A stretch of DNA of 64,000 nucleotides, taken from contig PLWS01000001.1 in NCBI GenBank assembly GCA_003151115.1, positions 51,438 through 115,437 of the forward strand, given 5' to 3'. The notes under the pieces were generated by a model. The model did not search any database. It had not been told where the DNA came from and saw only the letters and a list, made by a program, of their open reading frames with translations. The DNA is from Vulcanimicrobiota bacterium. Its GTDB lineage: Bacteria > Vulcanimicrobiota > Vulcanimicrobiia > Vulcanimicrobiales > Vulcanimicrobiaceae. A program made the translations under genes and the position numbers. Every line of letters starts with the position of its first letter. Position 1 is the first letter of the stretch. This document shows positions 8,572 to 31,856 of this stretch, in pieces.

Positions 8572-9878
8572 TCGTGTAAACTCTCGATGTCCCTTTCGAC
8601 GTCGTTGGTCAGATCGATACCGCCCGGCGCGGCTTCGATATTGATCAGAACGACTTGCAATCCGCGTTTCGCCGCCACTGTTCCGGCGTCACGCCGTATC
8701 TGTTCCACCATTTTGTTGTAGAGATCGTCCCGCTCGCGCTGCAGCTGTCCCAGCTGGGTGTTCGCAGCGCCGGTCGCCGACGCATCCGCGCCTTGCAGTT
8801 CGGCATAGCGGGCGTCGAGCTCGGCCTTGGTCGCTTGGTACTGCGCGATGGTCTTCTGCGCGTCCGTTTGGAATTGCGCCTTGAAATTGCGATCGATTTG
8901 CGCGATGCGGTCGCGCGTGGCCGCCGGCAGGTTAGAAGGCACGGCGTTCGGGCGCAGACCTTGGAGCTGCGACGATACCGCTTGGGAAACTTCGTTGCGG
9001 CGCGTCTGCAGCTTGGCTTGCGTGTCCGCGTGAATCTTCGCGGACTGCGCGGTCATCTCGCTGCGCACTTGGCCATTCAGCTGCGCGCGGTAAGCCGCAA
9101 GGGTCTGCTGATCGCGGGCGCGTTGCGCCGTTACGGCGGCTGCTTCGCGTTGGTCGAGGGCGGCCAGCTCGTCGCGGTATTGTTTGCGTGTAGCGTCGGG
9201 CAGCGCCAGGCCGTTCAGCTTCATGCGCAGCTGCAAACGCTTGTCGGCGTCAGCCTGCGAAAGTTCGAGGGAGAGCTGCGACTCGCGCTCTTGGAGCTGC
9301 GTTGCACGCTGGCCGAATGCGCGATCCGCGCGTGCGCTCAGTTGCGCGCCGATCGATTGGAGCGCGGCATTCGACTGCGTGACGACGCTCTGCTGATACT
9401 GCGCGAAATCACTGTTCGCTTGCGCGGTGACTTGCTGCGCTTGCGAAGCGGTGATGCTCTGCATCGCCTGCGCGCTCTGCGCGCCGTTGGTTCCGGCGCC
9501 CGCCGCGGCCAGGGCCGCCGAGATCGCCGCTTGTTCGCGCTGCGCGTAGTCCAGCTGTTTTTGACGCAAGATGCCGTTGGCGCGATCTTGTGCGGCTTTC
9601 AGCTCGGCGTTGAGTTCCTTGGTTTGCACCGCAATCTGCTTGCCTGTGTGCGGCACGGCGCCAGCGCCGAGCGAATGCAAACCGAGGGCGTCGATCGAGT
9701 CGTCGATCTGAGAGAGCTGCGGATATAGCGGATGCTTCTTCAGAACTTCTTCGAGCCGCACGTAGCCGATGCCGCGCACGTTCGGATCGTCGGCGCGCTG
9801 CTGAGCGCATCCCGCAAGCACAACGATCGCTGCCGCTAGCCCTGCGAAGATGTTCCTACTTGACTGCATTTTGGACAT
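8568..9878 (-). CDS. Giant Skp/OmpH-like lipoprotein with a greatly extended coiled coil (paralog 2)
   Basis: ORF 8568..9902; I prefer the start at MSKMQSS.. Lipobox VLAGC. OmpH-like N-end (IGYVRLEEVLKKHPLY) and C-end (RGLQVVLINIEAAPGGIDLTNDVERDI) are separated by more than 300 aa of Q/A/L-rich heptad-like sequence. Confidence 0.7.
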   Translation of the reverse strand: MSKMQSSRNIFAGLAAAIVVLAGCAQQRADDPNVRGIGYVRLEEVLKKHPLYPQLSQIDDSIDALGLHSLGAGAVPHTGKQIAVQTKELNAELKAAQDRANGILRQKQLDYAQREQAAISAALAAAGAGTNGAQSAQAMQSITASQAQQVTAQANSDFAQYQQSVVTQSNAALQSIGAQLSARADRAFGQRATQLQERESQLSLELSQADADKRLQLRMKLNGLALPDATRKQYRDELAALDQREAAAVTAQRARDQQTLAAYRAQLNGQVRSEMTAQSAKIHADTQAKLQTRRNEVSQAVSSQLQGLRPNAVPSNLPAATRDRIAQIDRNFKAQFQTDAQKTIAQYQATKAELDARYAELQGADASATGAANTQLGQLQRERDDLYNKMVEQIRRDAGTVAAKRGLQVVLINIEAAPGGIDLTNDVERDIESLHE

Positions 9879-10659
9879 CGGCAGTGATGTCCGCCCCGCC
9901 ATAGATGATATCGGCCCTATCGATCACGAGGATCAGATGCTTCTGGCCGGCGACATTGGCCATGGCGCTGCGCGTCTGATCGACAAGCGGCTTGAGCGTC
10001 TTGTTCTGTTCGTCGGTGAGCGATTTCTGATACTGCTGGAAGATCTGCTGCTGCTGCTGTTGGTTGTTTTTGGCAGCCTGCATTTTTTGCAGTGCGCTTT
10101 GCCGCGCATCGTTGGCGAATTTCAGAAAGTTGTCGTTGGCCGCTTTGATCTTCGGCAGCTGATCGATCTGAGATTGATCGACGAAACCGATGACCGCGGG
10201 AGGCGGCGTACTCGCGGGCGGCACGACCGGTCCCGGACCGTTGACGAGATCTACCACGCTTTTGGTGATATTCGTTCCGCCGAAAACGACGATGCGTTTG
10301 TCGACGACAACGGAAAGCCGCTGGTTAGACGCGATCTGCGCGATGGCGGTCTGCGCGCGCGCAAAGAGCGGGCCGAGCACTTGCCGCTGTTTGTCGAGAA
10401 ACTTCTGTTGGAATTCTCCCGAGATGCGCTGCCGGTCGGCGTCGTTGCGGGCGTGTTTCATCGCGGCCGAAAACTGCGGATCGAGTTGCGCCTTATATTG
10501 CGCTACCTGCGCATTCGCGCGTTGGAATTGCGGAAGCGCGCCGACCGCGGCTTGATCCAAGTAGCCGACGTCGGTGAGATCCGCTGCGATCGCGGCCGGA
10601 GCGGCGAGCAGTGCCGCTAACGCGGCTGCCGCCAATACTATTGCTGATGTACTCTTCAT
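9856..10659 (-). CDS. Tandem double-OmpH-domain periplasmic protein (paralog 3)
   Basis: 267 aa with a cleavable signal (AIA/AD). Two OmpH modules, ending ..RLSVVVDKRIVVFGGTNITKSVVDLV and ..KHLILVIDRADIIYGGADITADVQNAV. They are joined by the proline-rich linker PGPVVPPASTPPPA. Confidence 0.75.
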   Translation of the reverse strand: MKSTSAIVLAAAALAALLAAPAAIAADLTDVGYLDQAAVGALPQFQRANAQVAQYKAQLDPQFSAAMKHARNDADRQRISGEFQQKFLDKQRQVLGPLFARAQTAIAQIASNQRLSVVVDKRIVVFGGTNITKSVVDLVNGPGPVVPPASTPPPAVIGFVDQSQIDQLPKIKAANDNFLKFANDARQSALQKMQAAKNNQQQQQQIFQQYQKSLTDEQNKTLKPLVDQTRSAMANVAGQKHLILVIDRADIIYGGADITADVQNAVK

Positions 10660-23689: not shown

Positions 23690-24805
23690 CTATTGCCGCA
23701 GCGGCATCAAGACGTACAGTTGCTGCGCACCCTCCGTCGGCTCGACCGGTTTGATCGCTGCCGGCGAAAGCGGTCCCAGGAATTCCATCACGGTTTGCGC
23801 GCTCTCGATGTGATTCAAAATCTCCACGAGATAACGCGCATTGAAGGCGATCGTTAAATCTTCGCCTTGCTGTTCGACCTCGAGTTCTTCGTACGCGTTG
23901 CCCGAAACGTCAGAGCTTGCAGTGACGATCAGCGTTTGATTTGAAACGGCCAACTTTACCATGCTCGCGCGATCGCCGGCGACCAGTTCGGCGCGGCGCA
24001 GCGCGGCGATCAAACTCGGCGTGCTGACGGTCATCGAGCGATCGAACTTTGCCGGGATCACTTGTCCGTAGTTCGGGTATTGTCCATCCACGAGCCGCAC
24101 CGTAATCGATGCGTCACCCGCGGAAAACATCAGCTGGTTGCTTTGCGCGCCGAGCGCGGTGACGTCGACGAATTCCGCGCCGCCCAGATTGCGTGCAGCC
24201 TCGATGAGCGCTCGCGAAGGCACGATGTATTTTTCGCTGCCGGAGATTCCGCTCTCGAGAGTCGTTTGATACTTTGCCAGGCGATAGCCGTCGGTGGCGA
24301 CCAGAGTGATCGAGTCGCCTTCGATTTCGAGCAGCGTCCCCATCAGGACGGCGCCGCGCGCTTCTTCGCTCGAGGCCGCAAAGATCGCGGCATTCACGCC
24401 GTCGCGAAAGCGTTTGGCCGAGATCCGGAAGTTCTGACCTTTTTGAGCCGCGGGAAGCGGCGGATACTCTTCGGCCGGCAAGGCGTGGAAATCGTAACTG
24501 CTGCGCTCGTATTTAACGCTGGCGCGGGTCGGCGTTCCGGTCAATTCCATGAGTCCGGCTTGCAGGTTGCCTAAATAGCTGCTGAACAGTTTGGCCGGAA
24601 CCGTCACGCTGCCCGATTCGCTGACCTCGGCCGGAAAGGCGTGCTCGAGCGTCACTTCGAGATCGGTCGCGCGCACCGAGATTTTGCCCCCGTCTGCGCT
24701 AAGCAGCACATTGGACAAGATCGGAACGGTCGTATGCGCGTTGACGACCTTGCTGGCGGCGCCGACTGCGCCGGAGATATCTTTCGTGTTACAGGTGAAC
24801 TTCAT
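23690..24805 (-). CDS. dnaN: DNA polymerase III beta sliding clamp
   Basis: 371 aa. MKFTCNTKDISGAVGAASKVVNAHTTVPILSNVLLSADGGKISVRATDLEV.., ending ..YVLMPLRQ. Confidence 0.96.
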   Translation of the reverse strand: MKFTCNTKDISGAVGAASKVVNAHTTVPILSNVLLSADGGKISVRATDLEVTLEHAFPAEVSESGSVTVPAKLFSSYLGNLQAGLMELTGTPTRASVKYERSSYDFHALPAEEYPPLPAAQKGQNFRISAKRFRDGVNAAIFAASSEEARGAVLMGTLLEIEGDSITLVATDGYRLAKYQTTLESGISGSEKYIVPSRALIEAARNLGGAEFVDVTALGAQSNQLMFSAGDASITVRLVDGQYPNYGQVIPAKFDRSMTVSTPSLIAALRRAELVAGDRASMVKLAVSNQTLIVTASSDVSGNAYEELEVEQQGEDLTIAFNARYLVEILNHIESAQTVMEFLGPLSPAAIKPVEPTEGAQQLYVLMPLRQ

Positions 24806-24833
24806 TCCACACTCATTGCTGTCGTCGTTCGCT

Positions 24834-24870
24834 CTTTATTATAAAAAGATCTAATAGTATTAGTAGTAAG
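24834..24870. promoter_or_regulatory. AT-rich stretch in the dnaA-dnaN spacer, candidate DNA-unwinding element
   Basis: tttattataaaaagatctaatagtattagtagtaag is by far the most AT-rich run I saw in this high-GC window. It lies between dnaA and dnaN, as incC/DUE does in Bacillus-type origins. Confidence 0.45.
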
Positions 24871-24991
24871 GCGGTGCATTCTGCGAAGAAGCCCCGATTC
24901 GCTTGCTACGATGCGGGTTTGTGCCCGGCATAACCTGTGCAAGACCTTGGGGAGTTCCTACACATTTACACCGCCGGCCGCCTCCGGCCAG

Positions 24992-25000
24992 TTATCCACG
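24992..25000 (+). promoter_or_regulatory. DnaA-box-like 9-mer TTATCCACG
   Basis: One mismatch to TTATCCACA. In the dnaA-dnaN spacer, about 120 bp from the AT-rich stretch. Confidence 0.45.
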
Positions 25001-25048
25001 CGTTCAAAGCCGCCCTGTGCACCATACCGTGTATTAGATGTAGAAACG

Positions 25049-26419
25049 CTAGTCGGTCTGGCAGAGCGCCAGGAGCGAGCGGATCTTGTTGCGGTAGGCT
25101 TCGTCGCGCTGCATTTGGTCCTTCACTTTATCCCGCGCGTACATCACCGTCGTGTGGTCCTTCTTGTTGAACTCTCGCGCGATGTGGGGCAGAGAGCAGT
25201 CGGTCAGCTCGGTGCAGACGAACATCGCGATCTGGCGCGGTCCGGCCACCCGCTGGTCGCGCCGGTGGTTGTCCATCTCCTTGATAGTCAACCCGTGCGC
25301 CTTGGCGATCTTGTCTTTGATGGTATCGATGGTCACGCGCCGCAGCGGCATCTGGGCGACCGCGTTCTTGAGCACTTCGGCTGCGAGGTCGACCGTGATG
25401 GAAGACTTCGTTAGCGACGAAAACGCGACCACGCGAATTAGCGCGCCTTCGAGCTCGCGGATGTTGGACGGAATGACTTTCGCGATGTACGACGTCACTT
25501 CGTCGGGCACGGGAATCTTCTCCGACTCCGCCTTCTTGCGCAGAATCGCTTCGCGCGTTTCCAAATCGGGCGGCTGAATATCGGTGAGCAGTCCCCATTC
25601 GAACCGCGAGCGCAGACGATTTTCCAGCGTCTGAATCTCTTTGGGCGGCCGATCGCTGGAGATGACGAGCTGGCGCCCGGATTCATGCAGCGCGTTGAAT
25701 GTGTGGAAGAACTCTTCTTGCGTGCCTTCCTTGCCTTCCAAGAATTGGATGTCGTCGATCAGCAACACGTCGACCAAACGGTACTTGTTGCGAAACTCGA
25801 GCGTCTTGTTGTTTTGCACCGCGATGATGAACTCGTTCGTGAATTTTTCGCTCGACACGTACACGACGTTGGCGTCGGGAATATCTTGCAGCACGCGATG
25901 ACCGATCGCGTGCATGAGGTGCGTTTTGCCCAACCCCACGCCGCCGTAGAGGAAGAGCGGATTGTACGCGCGGGCCGGAGCGGCTGCGACCGCCTGCGCG
26001 GCTGCGTGCGCGAACCGGTTGGAGTTGCCGATGACGAACTCTTCAAACGTGTAGCGCGTATTCAGATTGCCGGGGCGGAAGTCGGTTTGCAGGCGGGCGC
26101 CGCCGGTAGCGGGCGCTGCGGCCCCCTCGGGAGCGGGCGTTTCGCCGGGTTGTTCGACGATCACGAACTGCAGCTCGAAAACGGTGCCGAATGTTTCGGC
26201 GAGCGCTTCGACGATCTGCACTTTGAGGCGGTTCTCAACCCACTCGCGGGCAAATGTGTTCTGGACCGCCAGCAGCAGTTCGTTTCCGTTGAGGGAAACC
26301 AGCCGGAGCGGCTTGATCCACATCTCGTAGATCGGTTTGGAGAATTTTCGTTCTAGCGCTTGAAGTGCGGATTGCCACAGTTCATTGGAAATATCGGTGT
26401 TTCCAGCCGCAAGCGCCAT
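25049..26419 (-). CDS. dnaA: Chromosomal replication initiator DnaA
   Basis: ORF 25049..26467 (TTG); I prefer ATG 26419 ([16 protein letters not shown]..). AAA+ motifs [16 protein letters not shown] and [14 protein letters not shown]-terminal DnaA-box-binding domain ..[12 protein letters not shown].. Confidence 0.96.
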
Positions 26420-26548
26420 CCTAATTCCGTCCCGTCGTCGTCTAGTTCGGAACTCCGCCACCGACAAAAGTCTAACGGCGGGGTCCCTTCTTGGAGGCGC
26501 ACAGGTTGGCGCTATCGGGGTCGTATCCTGCGGTAAATTAAGAGATTC

Positions 26549-26726
26549 TTATCCACTTATCCACAGGTGTAGAACCATCGATTTTTCGGGTGAAAACACA
26601 CATATTCCACCGCTGCGCCACATGTATTGACAAGCGGAAAAATGCCCGCCGTGCCGGGCTTTTCGGCGCAAGTCTAGCAAGCGTCCGCGAAGCGCTGTCC
26701 ACAGCCTTTTCCACAAGTGTGGAGAG
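26549..26726. promoter_or_regulatory. Cluster of DnaA-box-like 9-mers upstream of dnaA (oriC candidate)
   Basis: Tandem TTATCCAC-TTATCCACA at 26549-26565 (the second is a perfect consensus). CTGTCCACA at 26695-26703. TTTTCCACA at 26707-26715. Inverted CTCTCCACA at 26718-26726. All genes to the left are on the minus strand and all to the right on the plus strand. Confidence 0.65.
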
Positions 26727-26753
26727 CGGCCGTTTCTCAAGGTAGTGGTCCCT

Positions 26754-26837
26754 TTTGCTTGACGACCCCAATCGGGAGCTCTATACTAGTCCGCTTTACG
26801 AGAAAGGTCGGGATTTTACGTACGAAAGATTGACAAA
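26754..26837 (+). repeat. Direct repeat, left copy (84 bp), carrying a TTGACG-17-TATACT promoter
   Basis: 79/84 identical, ungapped, to 30123-30206 (hand alignment). -35 at 26759-26764, -10 at 26782-26787. A second TTGACA at 26830-26835. An extra shared 11-mer ccgtttctcaa lies just upstream (26730-26740 and 30110-30120). Confidence 0.9.
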
Positions 26838-26867
26838 TGGCCTGGGTCGGTGTGGTAAGCTGGGGCT

Positions 26868-27032
26868 ATGAAGGAACCGGATCGCAAGCGTCCCGAGGAC
26901 GCAAACCAGTCCGCCGCGAGGGTGGTCCGAGAAGCCACAGGCGGGTGGTATTGCCCCGCTTGTGAGCCGGAGCGCCTTCCGTCCTCAGAACAAGGCAAGC
27001 CCCACAAGCATACCTGCGGACGCGAAAACTAG
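26868..27032 (+). CDS. Hypothetical 54-aa Zn-ribbon-like protein (below the ORF-track size cutoff)
   Basis: Hand translation: MKEPDRKRPEDANQSAARVVREATGGWYCPACEPERLPSSEQGKPHKHTCGREN*. Has CPAC plus HKHTC. Third-position G+C is roughly two-thirds. Lies about 80 nt downstream of the left-repeat promoter. Confidence 0.4.
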   Translation: MKEPDRKRPEDANQSAARVVREATGGWYCPACEPERLPSSEQGKPHKHTCGREN

Positions 27033-27053
27033 CTGAAAGACCCAGAATCGCCT

Positions 27054-27194
27054 TTGGAGGGAACGCTCCGAGGTTGCGGGTCGGTAGCGGGTATCGTCCT
27101 CGGCGTCGTCCTCGCCGTCGTCCTCGGCGTGATCGTAATCCTGGCGCTGCTTTTAAACCAACCCTACTGCCGGCATCACCCCTGCTTACCATAA
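27054..27194 (+). CDS. Hypothetical 46-aa single-TM peptide (below the ORF-track size cutoff)
   Basis: TTG start within ttTGGAGGg. Hand translation: (M)EGTLRGCGSVAGIVLGVVLAVVLGVIVILALLLNQPYCRHHPCLP*. The hydrophobic core is encoded by a 3 x 12-bp tandem repeat (27095-27130). Third-position G+C is high. Confidence 0.35.
   Translation: MEGTLRGCGSVAGIVLGVVLAVVLGVIVILALLLNQPYCRHHPCLP
27095..27130 (+). repeat. 3 x 12-bp tandem repeat cgtcctcg(g/c)cgt
   Basis: cgtcctcggcgt / cgtcctcgccgt / cgtcctcggcgt, read directly. In frame it encodes the VLGV/VLAV units of the putative TM peptide. Confidence 0.9.
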
Positions 27195-27199
27195 CGGTC

Positions 27200-28228
27200 T
27201 TAGCCGTCATCCTCGGGCACTTGTTCTTTGCCCCACTCTAGCAACGGAAGATTTAGGTTCTCGGCGTGACGCGGAAGATATTTGTCCATCGACGTTTTGA
27301 AGTCGTCCCAATTCTCTGAGCCCCGCATGATCGTGACCACGGTCGCAAGGTGTTGGTTCAAAGCCGGGACGCCGAAATCTTCAGTCAGAAATTGCGTGTG
27401 CTTGTGACGCCGATGCTTCCCGACTTTCGGGTTGAGCTGTTCGAGTTTCGGTAGAATCCCCGGCGTGAGCCGGGCGTAAACATAATCCTTCGTGTAGTGC
27501 GCGACTATACCGGGCGGGTTAATTGAGCGGCCTTTCCAGGTCCATCCGCGCAACCGGAAGATTTGTTCGTAGAACTCGTCGGGAAAAAGTTTAGTCCATC
27601 GCGCCAATTCCTCTCGCAGAAAGCGTTGCAGTAGCGTTTGCAACAGCTCTGCGCGTGTATATCCGGTCGCCTCGTCAATCAAGGCGATAATCCCGACTTT
27701 GGCTACTGCTCGAACGATGACATCGGCCCTGATTGCAACGTCGGCGTAAACGTCGTCCAGCGTTTTGTTATCGCGAGAGCTTAGTACGGCGTTACAAACA
27801 TCGACAAGCAGCGGGGCCTTGTATGTAAAAGCGAGCGGCCCGCCTCGCGGTTGCCGCATGCGAAGCGGATTTCGCAAGGCCGCGACAGTTTCAGCGGACA
27901 TATACGCTTCGAGGTGCGCGTGGGTGATAAAGCGGTCCATCTCACCGCCGCGTGACGTGATTCCCAGGGCGTCGAAGAAACCGCGCTGCGAGAGTACGCG
28001 TTCGGTGTCTTCGAGGACGTAGCAAGGGACCTTAACTCCGCCGATAAGCAGCGGGTGTTCCTCGTCGCCATACTCCGCCACACGGATACTCGGGTCCCAA
28101 CGAGCGGCCGCGCCGCGCTTCCCGATCTCGCTACGTCGCTTGGCCGGTAGAGCTTTAGCCCTGGCTTCGCCACCACGCGCTCGGCCTGGTTTCTGCGCGT
28201 CGGAATCTTGAGGCATATCTTTATCCAT
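27200..28228 (-). CDS. P63C-domain-like phage protein
   Basis: ORF 27200..28447 trimmed to ATG 28228 (MDKDMPQDSD..), 342 aa. N-terminal basic motif ARGGEARAKALPAKRRSEIGKRGAAARW. Core ..IALIDEATGY..LFPDEFYEQIFRLRGW..YARLTPGILPKLEQLNP..HTQFLTEDFG..L..HL..V..IMR.. matches my memory of the P63C family. Confidence 0.55.
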   Translation of the reverse strand: MDKDMPQDSDAQKPGRARGGEARAKALPAKRRSEIGKRGAAARWDPSIRVAEYGDEEHPLLIGGVKVPCYVLEDTERVLSQRGFFDALGITSRGGEMDRFITHAHLEAYMSAETVAALRNPLRMRQPRGGPLAFTYKAPLLVDVCNAVLSSRDNKTLDDVYADVAIRADVIVRAVAKVGIIALIDEATGYTRAELLQTLLQRFLREELARWTKLFPDEFYEQIFRLRGWTWKGRSINPPGIVAHYTKDYVYARLTPGILPKLEQLNPKVGKHRRHKHTQFLTEDFGVPALNQHLATVVTIMRGSENWDDFKTSMDKYLPRHAENLNLPLLEWGKEQVPEDDG

Positions 28229-28264
28229 GCTTGCATTGTACCACGGATATGCTATAATGCAAGC
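28229..28264. promoter_or_regulatory. Perfect 9-bp inverted repeat (GCTTGCATT..AATGCAAGC) overlapping a TTGCAT-16-TATAAT promoter
   Basis: Arms at 28229-28237 and 28256-28264. -35 TTGCAT at 28231-28236 and -10 TATAAT at 28253-28258, facing the transposase gene. Abuts the ATG of the divergent P63C gene. Confidence 0.55.
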
Positions 28265-28337
28265 ATACCGCAAAGCGATGGTTGCAAAGTACGGGGCAAA
28301 TTGGCCCGTTTCCTGCGCAACGAAAGGGTAACAGGCC

Positions 28338-29204
28338 ATGAACCGCCTCCCGCTTGAAGACCGCGTCCGCGCCCTAGCCGCCCTGGTAGAGGGCAATTCC
28401 ATTCGCGGTACGGCCCGGATGGTCGGCCTGGACAAGAAAACGGTCATGCGGCTCTTGGAGGAGGTCGGAGACGCCTGCGACCTTTACCAGCACGACAACC
28501 TGCGCAACCTAAGCTGCGTTCGCGTCCAATGCGATGAGGTATGGTCCTTCTGCCACGCTAAAGAGCGCAACATTCGACCCGACAAGAAACGCCGGGATAT
28601 TGGCGACGTTTGGACCTGGACGGCAATAGACGCCAATACGAAGCTTATTATCACTTGGCACGTTGGGAAGCGGACGCATTGGGATGCGCGTCGTTTCATC
28701 CACGATCTCTCGCGACGCATCAAGTCTTTCGTGCAAATCACGACGGACGGCCTCAATATGTATATTGACCCTATCATAAAAGAATTCAAGTATCGCGCCG
28801 ACTACGGTCAGGATGTAAAAGTCTTTGGGCATGAGCCGATCCCGGAGGTAGCGAGGGGTCAAGATTCACGCTACAGCCCGCCGAAGCTCCTGGAAATGCG
28901 ACGGACGCAAGTGTGGGGCGTTCCCGATCTAGGTACTACCTCAACGGCCTATGTCGAGCGGCAGAATCTTACCATGCGTATGTCCATGCGCCGCTTCACG
29001 CGCTTGACCAATGCGTTCTCGAAAAAGATTATCAACCACCAGCGAGCGTTGGCGCTTCACTTCATGCACTACAACTTTTGCCGCGTTCATCAAACGCTTA
29101 AGACGACGCCAGCAATAAAACACGGCCTTACGGATCGCATTTGGACGTTGCATGACTTGGCGCGATTGCCAGAATTGATACGCGGTGAGGGAGCCGCCGC
29201 TTAA
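28338..29204 (+). CDS. IS1-family DDE transposase with an N-terminal HTH
   Basis: 288 aa. ..LVEGNSIRGTARMVGLDKKTVMRLL.. (HTH), CDEVWSF, TWTAIDANTKL, QITTDGLNMY, STAYVERQNLTMRMSMRRFTRLTNAFSKKIINHQRALALHFMHYNFCRVHQTLKTTPA. I could not find terminal inverted repeats by eye. Confidence 0.75.
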   Translation: MNRLPLEDRVRALAALVEGNSIRGTARMVGLDKKTVMRLLEEVGDACDLYQHDNLRNLSCVRVQCDEVWSFCHAKERNIRPDKKRRDIGDVWTWTAIDANTKLIITWHVGKRTHWDARRFIHDLSRRIKSFVQITTDGLNMYIDPIIKEFKYRADYGQDVKVFGHEPIPEVARGQDSRYSPPKLLEMRRTQVWGVPDLGTTSTAYVERQNLTMRMSMRRFTRLTNAFSKKIINHQRALALHFMHYNFCRVHQTLKTTPAIKHGLTDRIWTLHDLARLPELIRGEGAAA

Positions 29205-29211
29205 AAGAATG

Positions 29212-29232
29212 AGGGAGCGTAGTTACCGCTCC
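29212..29232 (+). terminator. Stem-loop after the transposase gene (GGGAGCG-tagttac-CGCTCCC)
   Basis: Perfect 7-bp GC-rich stem, 8 nt after the stop. No clear U-tract. A second hairpin, TCCCC-ttgc-GGGGA, lies at 29253-29266 between the convergent genes. Confidence 0.4.
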
Positions 29233-29329
29233 CGCATCCGACTGCCCGTGCTATCCCCTTGCGGGGAAGTGCCAGTGGGCCCTTATCACTCGGCCAGAAC
29301 CTTCAGTCTCAGTATAGCTGAACATTAGC

Positions 29330-30049
29330 TTATGTGCAAGCGTATTGGTAAAATTCTGTTGTTCCATATCGGAATAACGGAAATTCGCTTCGCAGTTTGT
29401 TCGAGATAAGCTTGTATGACCTGTCGTCCCCGCGCTCATATTTCCGAAAGATTGCCCACGCTATATAATCGCTGACTTGCAACATGTGGTGCGAATTCGC
29501 CGGGTGAAAATGGAGAAAGTACTTGATATTCTCGTCGGCTAACACCGATTTTAGACCGGCAATAAAAGCGTCTTTCTTGCCACGAAGCTCAAAGGATGCC
29601 GCGAAGATATGCAAGGTGTCATCCCGTAGTTCGTCGGCCTTTCCTATCCTGCGCAGAATGCCGAGCGCCAAGCCGCGGAACACTAACCCGTAAAATGCTC
29701 GTCGCTCTTGTCGCTTCGGGTGCGTTTTGTTCTTTTGAACCACGACAGAGTAGGCGTTAAACTGAAGCGCCGAGATGAGATCAAAAACTTCGTCCCGCAC
29801 AGCTTGCGGGTCTTCCGTGCAGTGGAACCCCGCAAATTGGTGCGGTCGTGTTATCCGCAGAGTCGCCGGATCGCGGCGCAAGATGTCGTGTCGCAAAGCG
29901 AGCAGCGGAAGGCACCCTTGAGAGGGGTCTTCGGTCGCCACTGCCGCTAGGATGAAATACTTGGTGTCGTTGGGACCAAAATCGAATGTCCCGGACTCAT
30001 CAATGAAGATGTAGATATTGCGACCCGCCATCCCGGACGGTTCGGACAA
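29330..30049 (-). CDS. DUF3800-family protein
   Basis: 239 aa. N-terminal IYIFIDESGTFDF and C-terminal ..HHMLQVSDYIAWAIFRKYERGD match the two hallmark DUF3800 motifs (DESG, Q-x-[AS]-D). Lowest-GC gene in the window. An alternative ATG is at 30031. Confidence 0.65.
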   Translation of the reverse strand: MSEPSGMAGRNIYIFIDESGTFDFGPNDTKYFILAAVATEDPSQGCLPLLALRHDILRRDPATLRITRPHQFAGFHCTEDPQAVRDEVFDLISALQFNAYSVVVQKNKTHPKRQERRAFYGLVFRGLALGILRRIGKADELRDDTLHIFAASFELRGKKDAFIAGLKSVLADENIKYFLHFHPANSHHMLQVSDYIAWAIFRKYERGDDRSYKLISNKLRSEFPLFRYGTTEFYQYACT

Positions 30050-30122
30050 GCGGACGAGATTAGCCTGTTGCCCCTCGAATCATCACCTAATTCTATAAGT
30101 CGTACAGTACCGTTTCTCAATC

Positions 30123-30206
30123 TTTGCTTGACGGCCCCAATCGGGAGCTCTATACTAGTCCGCTTTGCGAGAAAGGCTGGAATTTTACGTACGAAAGATT
30201 GACAAA
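30123..30206 (+). repeat. Direct repeat, right copy (84 bp), carrying a TTGACG-17-TATACT promoter
   Basis: 79/84 identical to 26754-26837. -35 at 30128-30133, -10 at 30151-30156, TTGACA at 30199-30204. Confidence 0.9.
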
Positions 30207-30228
30207 GCAGAGTAGCTAGAGGCTCGGC

Positions 30229-30258
30229 TTGACGCCTCCGCCGTGCTAGACCTATACT
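30229..30258 (+). promoter_or_regulatory. Proximal rpmH promoter, TTGACG-18-TATACT
   Basis: -35 at 30229-30234, -10 at 30253-30258. Shares gcTTGACG and CTATACTAG with the two repeat-borne promoters. AGGAG RBS at 30298-30302. Confidence 0.6.
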
Positions 30259-30313
30259 AGGTGGCTGTGCCGGCGGGTGCATCCCCGGCTAGTCCCCAGG
30301 AGTACATTCCTTC

Positions 30314-30448
30314 ATGAAGCGGACCTTCCAACCGCATAACCGCCGGCGCAAACGCGTCCACGGCTTTCGCGAGCGTATGTCCACCAAGAACGGCCGCCGC
30401 GTCATCGCGGCCCGCCGCAGAAAGGGCCGCAAGCGCCTCAGCGTCTGA
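30314..30448 (+). CDS. rpmH: 50S ribosomal protein L34
   Basis: Below the ORF-track cutoff. Hand translation: [44 protein letters not shown]. The stop overlaps the rnpA ATG (TGATG). Confidence 0.97.
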
Positions 30449-30768
30449 TGCGACGCTTTGCCAGCCTGCGCCGCCAAGCGGACTTCGCCCGCCTGCGCCA
30501 GCGCGGCCGGCGCATGGCTACCCCGAACTTAACCGTGTACCGCGGCGAAGGCGCCCCGCAGGGCGAACGACCACTCGTGGGCATTACCGTTTCGACCGCC
30601 GTAGGCAAAGCCGTCATCCGCAATAAAGTGAAGCGCCGCATCGCGGCCTGCATGCACGATCTCGTTCCCGCCGATCCGCAGGTCCGGATTTTGGTCGTCG
30701 CGCGGCCTTCGACAGCCGGCGCGACCTATACGGATCTTCGCTCCGAACTTGCGCGAGCGTTAGCCTAG
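30448..30768 (+). CDS. rnpA: Ribonuclease P protein component
   Basis: 106 aa, basic. ..[22 protein letters not shown].. is the RnpA RNR-type motif. Canonical position after rpmH. Confidence 0.92.
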
Positions 30769-30983
30769 TGCGCCGTATCGCCGTCGCGGCGCTGCGCGTC
30801 TATAAGCTTGTGATTTCGCCGCTTCTCCCGCCTGCATGCCGCTTCTATCCGAGCTGTTCGGAATACGCCGCGCAGGCCATTGCAAAGCACGGCGTGATTC
30901 GCGGAGGCGCGATGGCCGCAGGCCGCGTCGCGCGCTGTCACCCGTGGCATCCCGGCGGTTTCGATCCGGTAGCGGAGCGCTAG
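30768..30983 (+). CDS. yidD: Membrane protein insertion efficiency factor YidD
   Basis: 71 aa. ..[45 protein letters not shown]. Confidence 0.93.
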
Positions 30984-30986
30984 ATC

Positions 30987-31856
30987 TTGCACTTCATTCT
31001 GGCCACCAACGCGTTTCTCGATCCGATCGTCAACGGCATCATCGCCATTCTCGACGCGATCAACTCGGTCGTGCACAGCCGCGGCTGGAGCTTGGTCATC
31101 TTTGCGCTGGGCTTCAAATTGATCTCGTGGCCGCTGAACACCAAACAGTTCATGTCGATGATCAAGATGCAGAAGCTCGCGCCGCAAATGAAAGCGCTGC
31201 AAGCCAAGTACGCCAAGAGCGATCCGCAGCGCTATCAAAAAGAAACGATGGAGCTCTACAAGCGGGAAGGCGCCAATCCGCTGGCCGGCTGCTGGCCGAT
31301 GCTCGTGCAGTACCCGATCATCATCAGCGTCTATTATGCGGTCTGGTCGCACAAAGCGCTGTACGCGAACGAGCACTGGCTCTGGGTCGGCGCACCATTC
31401 ACGCGGCACGTGGCACCGCTTTTATGGAAGGCCTATCTCTTCGCGCCGAACTTGGCGGCGGCCGACATCGTGCTGCTGCTGCTCTACGCGATCTCGATGT
31501 ATTTCTATTCGCGCTACGCGACGATGCCGTCGGCCGATCCGCAGCAGGCGCAGACGCAAAAGCTGATGGCGATCTTCTCGCCGCTGATGCTCGGATTCTT
31601 GGGGCTGCGCTACAACTGGCCCTCGGCGATGGTGCTCTACTGGTTCTCCTATAACTTGTTCACGATGGGCCAACAATTTTATCTGCTCGGCAAGTACCAC
31701 CAGCCGCTCTCCGCGCTGGACGATTTTCATGCGATCACCGACTTGCCGGATGACGCGAAGACCAAAGCGCTGCCCAACCCCAATGGGGAAGTCAGCGGCC
31801 AGCAGCGGGGCGGTGCGCGCAGAAATAAAAAGAAAAAGAGAGGCGCAAGAAGGTAG
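30987..31856 (+). CDS. yidC: YidC/Oxa1-family membrane insertase, short form without a large periplasmic domain
   Basis: 289 aa, TTG start. ..WSLVIFALGFKLISWPLNTKQFMSMIKMQKLAPQMKALQAKYAKSDPQRYQKETMELYKREGANPLAGCWPMLVQYPI.. Basic C-terminal tail. Confidence 0.92.
   Translation: MHFILATNAFLDPIVNGIIAILDAINSVVHSRGWSLVIFALGFKLISWPLNTKQFMSMIKMQKLAPQMKALQAKYAKSDPQRYQKETMELYKREGANPLAGCWPMLVQYPIIISVYYAVWSHKALYANEHWLWVGAPFTRHVAPLLWKAYLFAPNLAAADIVLLLLYAISMYFYSRYATMPSADPQQAQTQKLMAIFSPLMLGFLGLRYNWPSAMVLYWFSYNLFTMGQQFYLLGKYHQPLSALDDFHAITDLPDDAKTKALPNPNGEVSGQQRGGARRNKKKKRGARR

Follow-up and report, generated by a model that had tools for sequence, protein, structure and literature searches.

A dnaA-rpmH island in a Vulcanimicrobiota bacterium as a probable cargo-carrying IS1-family element with P63C and DUF3800 passengers

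Given that an island with genes for a P63C-family protein, an IS1-type transposase and a DUF3800 protein separates dnaA from rpmH in a Vulcanimicrobiota bacterium (GenBank assembly GCA_003151115.1, contig PLWS01000001.1, positions 51,438 to 115,437 of the forward strand), we asked whether these genes form one functional system or merely share a carrier. The window is this whole stretch of 64,000 nt, and coordinates are counted from its first base. The original prediction, made from the letters alone, had described the transposase as solo and possibly domesticated and had grouped the three genes as a candidate defence or phage-related module, with a decayed prophage or satellite fragment as the alternative. 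Profile searches confirm that all three genes lie where it had placed them and belong to the families it had named. We consider it likely that positions 26741-30111 are one 3.37-kb cargo-carrying ('transporter IS') insertion sequence (IS) of the IS1 family, in which P63C and DUF3800 are independent passengers.

Borders of the island and the empty site

Sister genomes were found by look-up of the exact RpmH sequence; their RpmH is identical to that of the window and their DnaA 96-97% identical. Four of them (L001, L004, L005 and L006) are free of the island and have only ~410-550 nt between dnaA and rpmH, which argues for a recent insertion in the lineage of the window. Two further sequences, L002 (GCA_003167295.1, contig PMTQ01000001.1) and L003 (a JGI contig), are identical to the window. 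Homologous proteins carry source names that put the window in Candidatus Eremiobacterota. The empty site is uninterrupted in the four island-free genomes and in L007 (...CCGTTTCTCAA|TCTTTGC...), and comparison with it identifies a 9-bp target-site duplication in the window, GTTTCTCAA, present at 26732..26740 and, identically, at 30112..30120. Immediately inside the left copy we observed the left terminal inverted repeat (26741..26757, plus strand, GGTAGTGGTCCCTTTTG), which recurs as the subfamily repeat of L102, L264, L267 and L273. GGTAGTG occurs twice in the 64-kb window, once exactly at this left junction (26741), where it falls within an 11-13-nt insertion when set against the empty sites. 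The right terminal inverted repeat (30084..30111, minus strand; read inward GGTACTGTACGACTTATAGAATTAGGTG, GGTACTG...) is degenerate, abuts the right duplication copy and agrees with the right repeat of L102 in 20 of 28 aligned columns, with one gap.

GGnnnTG ends and duplications of 8-9 bp are hallmarks of the IS1 family in the ISfinder classification. The island has both, namely ~20-nt inverted repeats starting GGnnnTG (left tip at 26741, right tip degenerate) and GTTTCTCAA on either side, though within a longer repeat. Relatives of the same group, which we call the GGTAGTGGTCCC subfamily, also show 9-bp duplications (AGGGACCTA in L270, CGCGACGTC in L273). Together, the repeats, the duplication and the matching ends delimit the element as 26741-30111 (3,371 bp), with DUF3800 inside it, in a second cargo slot. 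That the transposase lacks inverted repeats, as originally predicted, holds for the DNA directly adjoining the gene and fails for the island, whose repeats at 26741 and 30111 enclose all of the genes. The consensus repeat GGTAGTGnnTCAGTTTGAA was not found in the window with up to three mismatches or with a weight matrix, because the subfamily of the window has its own repeat, GGTAGTGGTCCCTTTTGAA, which becomes recognisable by comparison with L102, L267 and L273.

These borders bear directly on the alternative of a decayed prophage or a fragment of a phage satellite. P63C is indeed a phage family (PHROG 2384, with at least 571 matches on viral contigs), and the guanine-plus-cytosine content of the island is below that of its surroundings, reaching the window minimum of 0.52-0.53 at 28701-30100, over DUF3800, as had been noted. 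Yet a Pfam-type profile scan of the window and island genes detected no integrase and no phage structural or replication domain, no tRNA lies anywhere in the window, the island ends in IS repeats beside a short target duplication rather than in att sites, and the gene order is that of intact IS relatives. A prophage or satellite remnant is thus scarcely credible here.

The transposase and its IS family

The transposase gene (28338..29204, plus strand) is a single open reading frame (ORF) of 288 residues with an N-terminal helix-turn-helix (HTH). It is placed among IS1-type DDE transposases on a partial Pfam match and an NCBIfam match below the cut-off, and it has the triad D66/D137/E207, the columns of which are invariant across 16 relatives. 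It has at least 8,000 homologues at E<1e-10, and NCBI and JGI label relatives 'IS1 family transposase'. The InsA/InsAB' two-ORF frameshift layout of classical IS1 is absent, HTH and DDE domains being held in one ORF, and the element thus resembles single-ORF IS1 groups rather than classical IS1.

A metagenome scan with the transposase alignment returned 80 loci, 34 of which contain complete elements with lengths of 2.1-4.8 kb. Perfect 8-bp target duplications flank 30 of these 34 elements and, overall, 36 of the 41 relatives with paired repeats. The family follows a common plan in which a left repeat is succeeded by a small basic protein, a first cargo slot (mostly on the opposite strand), the transposase, an optional second slot (up to 1.9 kb where present) and a right repeat. 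The small basic protein spans ~45-80 residues, with the pattern KRPRDxNQLAxxIV...GGLKGGKARAxxLxxxxRxxIAxxAAxxRW. This layout recurs on plasmids of cultured Mesorhizobium, Hoeflea and Acidiphilium, where the transposase is annotated 'IS1 family transposase' and the Mesorhizobium copy of the small protein carries the annotation 'histone H1'.

The window element follows the gene order of this family. Its transposase, which the original prediction took for a solo gene that might be domesticated, is the engine of a bounded element and is not visibly domesticated, with the DDE triad kept. We propose that the element would have arrived by DDE transposition. With a degenerate right repeat and a small protein missing its C-terminal half, the copy in the window is probably no longer mobile; the transposase retains its catalytic triad.

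P63C in the first cargo slot

The first slot holds a phage-type P63C gene (27200..28228, minus strand) of 342 residues that matches PF10546 (E=7e-28, 97.5 bits, cut-off 26.1) and, across 317 residues and at full length, PHROG 2384 (E=3e-93). As predicted, its N-terminus carries a basic motif (GG-ARA-L-R-I-A-RW), which is at least 90% conserved among 65 homologues. The AF2 model (predicted local distance difference test, pLDDT, 79) places a basic N-terminal helix pair before a Bro-N-like beta domain and the P63C helical domain. The Foldseek comparison that had been suggested found resemblance in a viral library to Mx8 p63 (1e-7) and to Bro-N/antirepressor proteins, but nothing under E=0.37 in PDB, and profile searches of PDB sequences gave no match. 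The activity of P63C is most likely DNA binding, and nothing suggests an enzyme.

At E<=1e-5 the P63C family comprises at least 3,129 proteins, and it is mainly a phage-borne gene family. An alignment scan of 185,579 species genomes provided 80 genomic P63C loci from many phyla, and a homologue of the window transposase lies beside P63C in 26 of these, immediately upstream and divergent as in the window in 24 and downstream on the same strand in the other two. In seven such loci a pair of ~20-nt inverted repeats (GGTAGTGnnTCAnTTTGAA) encloses both genes, six times with perfect 8-bp duplications. Only one of the 80 viral P63C loci fetched adjoins this transposase. The nearest relatives of the window P63C (87% and 60% identical) are divergent from other transposases (SWIM/DDE_Tnp_1), and their DNA similarity to the window is limited to the gene and ~60-100 nt upstream. 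In other P63C loci, a search downstream of the gene gave no conserved small zinc-ribbon ORF. A literature search on 'P63C' retrieved unrelated uses of the term only.

The palindrome predicted between the divergent P63C and transposase genes was found at 28227..28266 (minus strand; ATGCTTGCAT...ATGCAAGCAT), with arms at 28227-28243 and 28250-28266 that are 88% complementary. As the P63C operator/promoter, this inverted repeat overlaps TTGCAT-N17-TACAAT and the ATG in the window (TTGCAT-17-TAnAAT in the comparison with relatives) and is kept beside four different neighbouring genes. Upstream of P63C, the pair ATGCTTGC/GCAAGCAT stands in 47 of 82 loci and, in the viral set, in 44 of 79; only 4 of 1,560 control windows contain it. 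The P63C mRNA is probably leaderless, and P63C with its upstream piece appears to be a self-contained, autoregulated cassette. Under this arrangement P63C would bind its own palindrome as a putative autoregulator and, given the position of the palindrome in the divergent promoter region, probably also influences expression of the transposase.

We considered whether P63C could instead belong to the transposition machinery of a sub-lineage, as a DNA-binding regulator or target-selection factor, which would leave DUF3800 as the only cargo. The 26 shared loci, 24 of them divergent with a palindrome in the common control region, speak for such a role, as does the divergent placement of P63C beside transposases of the IS1595 and DDE_Tnp_1 types. 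Moreover, a ~30-residue basic motif (GGxARAxxLxxxxRxxIAxxAAxxRW), covered by no Pfam family, forms both the C-terminus of the IS small protein and the N-terminus of P63C, phage copies included: the hidden Markov model (HMM) of the small proteins matches the P63C N-terminus at E=4e-9, and the motif is seen in the small proteins of L101-L180, L181-L183 and L273 and, for P63C in the window, within 28079-28228. On the other hand, of the 55 transposase loci that offer enough room for a judgement only ~7-8 contain P63C, most P63C genes, including 79 of the 80 viral loci, have no transposase, and gene and operator travel as a unit among unrelated neighbours. We therefore regard a machinery role as unlikely and retain P63C as a passenger.

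DUF3800 in the second cargo slot

The DUF3800 gene (29330..30031, minus strand) occupies the second slot and encodes 233 residues from its ATG, or 239 from an upstream TTG at 30049. It matches PF12686 (E=1.4e-10, 42.5 bits, cut-off 21) and has the N-terminal DE motif, C-terminal QxxD motif and RNase H-like fold of that family. The DESG and QxSD motifs noted in the original prediction are seen as IDESG and QVSD, with D11/E12 invariant and Q185/D188 at least 90% conserved. Profile searches of PDB sequences gave no match; in the AF2 model (pLDDT 90.8), Foldseek recovered RNase HII (1eke, E=7e-6), which suggests an RNase HII-like fold and a putative nuclease, in line with published modelling of the retron type VII DUF3800 and the Cas12a2-associated TPR-DUF3800 (TPR, tetratricopeptide repeat). 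The gene would also bring its own terminator: of the two hairpins predicted and found between the convergent transposase and DUF3800 genes (29213..29277, minus strand), the first (29213-29233) is terminator-like for DUF3800, while the folding of the spacer as a whole is unexceptional (z=-1.2).

A PADLOC search, also proposed originally, matched the protein to the DUF3800_VII model (E=5.5e-20) but assembled no complete named system, no other island gene, P63C and the small ORFs included, matching a model. With respect to retron type VII, no reverse transcriptase domain was found in any island ORF and no msr/msd by Rfam at 24500-31500, and a scan of the same interval for eleven DUF3800-associated RNA motifs was negative. 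The sole Rfam match there, to AsdA (antisense RNA of dnaA mRNA; 25868-25948, 30.8 bits against a gathering score of 52), lies inside dnaA and most likely mirrors conservation of the coding sequence.

The DUF3800 subfamily of the window is small and standalone, with 27 homologues that are from Eremiobacterota or Dormibacterota on the four name-bearing matches. Its members occur in an integrative element (L095), beside a PhD/PIN pair (L098) and inside an IS1595-type element (L099/L100), and DUF3800 seems to ride habitually in IS elements. DUF3800 genes lie within the inverted repeats of IS1595-type elements in L005 (16761-19500) and L099 (4335-7784), the latter of the window's subfamily and the former of a different one. 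The L005 transposase and DUF3800 pair was rejected as homologous to that of the window, as the likeness is at family level only, with no sequence similarity. An apparent DnaA-DUF3800 fusion in P0122 (ENA contig, 1,242 nt), a 244-residue ORF in which part of DnaA runs into the C-terminal 57% of the DUF3800 protein through a common 'KTH', was likewise rejected, since it looks like an assembly chimera.

Cargo of relatives and co-occurrence

In a survey of the first slot in 29 elements, Pfam identified XRE-HTH + M78 peptidase proteins in eight, and the PADLOC matches of these XRE-M78 proteins were to RmrA (E down to 2.6e-70), PD-Lambda-2_B and CapP. Other first-slot cargo included Fic/SoFic (1e-54), dGTPase (1.5e-119), ClpP-like proteases, NYN, Mrr_N and one DUF3800. 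Examples from the second slot and from plasmids comprise a complete RmrA (3e-191) and RmrT (1e-97) pair, a RES toxin with an Xre-type antitoxin, proteasome-like and ClpP-like proteases and GIY-YIG, and, in the subfamily closest to the window, the second slot of L267 combines a type II methyltransferase (1e-67) with a nuclease of BglII type and a gene of the dCTP-deaminase family (DCD). RosmerTA, SoFic, dGTPase and dCTP deaminase are reportedly anti-phage systems. A conserved protein of 135-137 residues, convergent with the transposase, was also observed in the second slot of several origin-located elements (L268 4168-4581, L270 5857-6264, L272 920-1327); it has no Pfam family in the contig tables, its L268 copy has no PADLOC match, and it is another cargo candidate.

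The defence-type context envisaged in the original prediction is therefore borne out at the level of the family, as the same two slots in intact relatives hold recognised anti-phage or toxin-antitoxin genes. By association with RosmerTA, SoFic, dGTPase, restriction-modification, RES-Xre and NYN in sister slots, DUF3800 and P63C are candidates for a defence role, and each cargo gene is a reasonable putative candidate on its own. DUF3800, as a putative nuclease, and perhaps P63C may act as single-gene anti-phage or exclusion functions that would favour retention of the element.

We then weighed the proposal that P63C, the transposase-like protein and DUF3800 evolved together as the three genes of a single system for defence or of toxin-antitoxin type. 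In its favour are the compact arrangement, in which a divergent promoter region is shared and the terminators converge, and the match of DUF3800 to a PADLOC model. Against this, the co-occurrence of P63C and DUF3800 that had been suggested as a check is absent from the 240 loci fetched through P63C or the transposase: the DUF3800 subfamily of the window was found in none of 80 genomic P63C loci (subfamily HMM and motif filter), 80 viral P63C loci or 80 transposase loci (subfamily HMM for both). Each gene does accompany the transposase without the other, since L273 has P63C in its first slot and a fused methyltransferase/nuclease in its second, whereas L270 has DUF3800 in its first slot (as has L102) and no P63C. 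The transposase itself has an intact DDE triad, and the elements to which it belongs show repeats and duplicated target sites. P63C and DUF3800 are independent passengers that do not travel together elsewhere, and a single three-gene system is exceedingly improbable.

Recurrence at the replication origin

The island is flanked by dnaA (25049-26467, minus strand) on one side and by rpmH-rnpA-yidD-yidC-jag-mnmE (from 30314 on, plus strand) on the other, and these surroundings are the replication-origin region. Clusters of DnaA boxes lie at 26549-26565 and 26707-26715, and the insert has the rpmH promoters on one side and, on the other, the cluster of DnaA boxes that lies upstream of dnaA. Contigs were examined for five transposase relatives among the closest (65-71% identity), and four of these elements were at dnaA, with L268 and L270 exactly between rpmH and dnaA, L264 and L267 just upstream of dnaA, and L273 elsewhere; among the 80 more distant relatives, two (L122 and L124) are also at rpmH/dnaA. 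The duplications and insertion points differ (CGGCGGAA, AGGGACCTA, ACACTCTC and GTTTCTCAA) and the window copy is inverted relative to L268, L270 and L124, which indicates that the elements of these different organisms inserted separately. A DnaA-box-like ...CCACA directly adjoins three targets of the GGTCCC subfamily. The original notion of an accessory defence module at a hot spot can accordingly be kept in so far as a mobile accessory element occupies a recurrent insertion spot, and set aside in so far as its genes are not one module. L264 additionally has an IS200/IS605 element (Y1_Tnp + TnpB) beside the IS1-like element, which gives the spacer near the origin the look of a common landing site for mobile elements.

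Such recurrence would be explained if the host had adopted the element, or its lineage, for a function at the origin such as modulating dnaA/rpmH expression or initiation. In favour are the six origin-located relatives above, a copy of the rpmH promoter inside the element and the similar between-lineage identities of DnaA (72-81%) and transposase (66-77%), from which a long co-residence of element and host lineages is possible. However, the nearest sister genomes have no element, the insertion points, duplications and orientation vary by lineage, the cargo differs in every lineage, and L273 lies elsewhere, which renders co-option very unlikely. For the cargo-carrying element, the origin bias may reflect either targeting of origin DNA or preferential survival there.

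The internal promoter copy and small ORFs

Just within the left end of the element lies an 84-nt copy of the rpmH-upstream promoter/leader (26754..26837, plus strand; direct repeat D1), 94% identical to the native segment at 30123..30206 (plus strand), which was identified as its partner by direct repeat and promoter scan. The repeat contains a strong promoter-like TTGACG-17-TATACT, and the internal one, at 26759-26787, faces the small gene. The element-free L007 is colinear with the internal copy for five bases further, through TTGACAAA+GGCC. The copy is possibly flanking DNA captured when the element previously resided at this locus in a related host; later gene conversion is a possible alternative. 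A third promoter-like copy was seen at 30229-30258. Close relatives differ in the spacer that parts the two rpmH promoter copies, which measures ~300 nt with a 58-residue ORF in L007 (380-720) and ~130 nt in L001/L005/L006 (about 9850-9990), and L004 has a single fused promoter.

The small basic protein of the IS family is represented by a remnant or variant, sORF54 (26868..27032, plus strand, 54 residues), in the canonical position and orientation. An HMM built from 36 small proteins matched only two of 3,144 ORFs from the window and relatives, namely sORF54 (RKRPEDANQSAARVVREATGG, E=1.6e-4) and the P63C N-terminus. The N-terminal half of sORF54 is kept and the C-terminal GGKARA...RW motif is gone. 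The 58-residue ORF at the empty site of L007 was rejected as a homologue of sORF54, the two showing no homology. Next to sORF54, a hydrophobic 46-residue ORF (27054..27194, plus strand) with three 12-nt tandem units (GTCGTCCTCGSC, repeat family D2, 27092-27135) is a doubtful gene whose homologues occur only in identical contigs; it may be non-coding DNA that fills the gap from the small gene to the end of P63C.

Discussion

Several observations weigh against a single cargo-carrying IS1-family element. The Pfam DDE_Tnp_IS1 match (30.4 bits, cut-off 24.1) is confined to residues 202-239, in the C-terminal part of the transposase, and the NCBIfam transpos_IS1 score of 59.3 bits is under its cut-off of 100. 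The right repeat is weak, agreeing with the window's own left repeat at ~10 of 19 positions, unlike the near-perfect repeat pairs of relatives. The 9-nt duplication is part of a longer direct repeat of ~108 nt, so the junctions alone are no proof of simple transposition, and the 84 nt directly inside the left repeat are chromosomal DNA from the right side of the element, which a plain insertion leaves unexplained. With regard to cargo, the ORFs of relatives were called by a crude longest-ORF rule, the XRE-M78 proteins that provide many of the family's PADLOC matches can be regulators rather than effectors, P63C has no PADLOC counterpart, and the candidate defence role of either cargo gene comes from slot association.

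For annotation, an apparent solo transposase without terminal inverted repeats and two orphans become a bounded, classifiable element, and the proposed three-gene system drops off the candidate list. We put forward more tentatively that a widespread IS1-family lineage, built on a constant chassis of small basic protein and transposase with two cargo slots, works as a miniature carrier of immune modules of one or two genes, with a sub-lineage that preferentially lands or persists at dnaA-rpmH, and that P63C and standalone DUF3800 are new anti-phage or exclusion functions of single genes; this is possible, though we hold it to be less probable than not. Were it true, the slots would be a guilt-by-association catalogue of immune genes. 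If the family pattern holds, IS1-type elements of 2-5 kb would be an overlooked vehicle for defence and toxin-antitoxin genes with minable slots, P63C and DUF3800 first. Repeated independent occupation of dnaA-rpmH would mean either that origin DNA is recognised by the transposase or a small DNA-binding partner or that the site is a tolerated, high-dosage harbour. The family-level cargo pattern and the origin-region bias are the parts most worth following.

Comparison with known systems

DUF3800 accessory proteins have been linked to retron type VII, as its effector, to Cas12a2/a3 loci, as TPR-DUF3800, and to Cas13 loci, as Csx32 of CASK loci (PMC7736814, PMC10910872, PMC13594972, bioRxiv 10.64898/2026.08.25.746378). 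The DUF3800 protein of the window shares with them the Pfam family, a fold resembling RNase H2 and the DE and QxxD motifs, and differs in its surroundings, which contain neither a reverse transcriptase nor a TPR domain, a CRISPR-Cas gene or a DUF3800 RNA motif of Rfam. For P63C, the comparison is with a reported group of phage P63C, Bro-N and antirepressor-type proteins, Mx8 p63 among them, with which it shares the P63C C-terminal domain and, by structure search, a Bro-N-like N-terminal beta domain, whereas its distinct conserved ~340-residue architecture (PHROG 2384, function unknown), basic N-terminal motif and dedicated palindromic operator set it apart.

Among insertion sequences, longer members of the ISMhu11 group (to ~4.6 kb) are said to hold extra genes. 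The single-ORF and ISMhu11-like IS1 groups resemble the window lineage in a DDE transposase that IS1 models pick up (for the window, in part or below the cut-off), ~20-nt GGnnnTG ends (here GGTAGTG) and 8-9-bp duplications; the window lineage differs in lacking the InsA/InsAB' frameshift, in its separate conserved small basic protein at the far end, in two cargo slots of changing content and in a sub-lineage concentrated at dnaA/rpmH. Literature searches retrieved nothing for 'ISMhu11', noise only for 'transporter IS/tIS' and, for the combination of IS1 with passenger genes and defence, no account of cargo of this sort on IS1-type elements. Transporter IS of the IS1595 family (ISNwi1/ISNha5 groups) reportedly carry passenger genes as well. 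These have a transposase of a related DDE clan and, in this data set, IS1595-type elements adjoin P63C in 4-5 loci, but their Zn-ribbon_IS1595 + DDE_Tnp_IS1595 transposase has no similarity to that of the window and their ends are different.

On a larger scale, Tn7-like transposons and integron cassettes are reported platforms for defence cargo and are similar to the present family as mobile carriers of interchangeable defence and toxin-antitoxin genes, here small ones. Those platforms rely on TnsABC(D)/CRISPR-associated transposon (CAST) machinery or on the integrases of integrons and are either far larger or organised as cassettes, whereas the family described here moves cargo in units of 2-5 kb with one IS1-type transposase.

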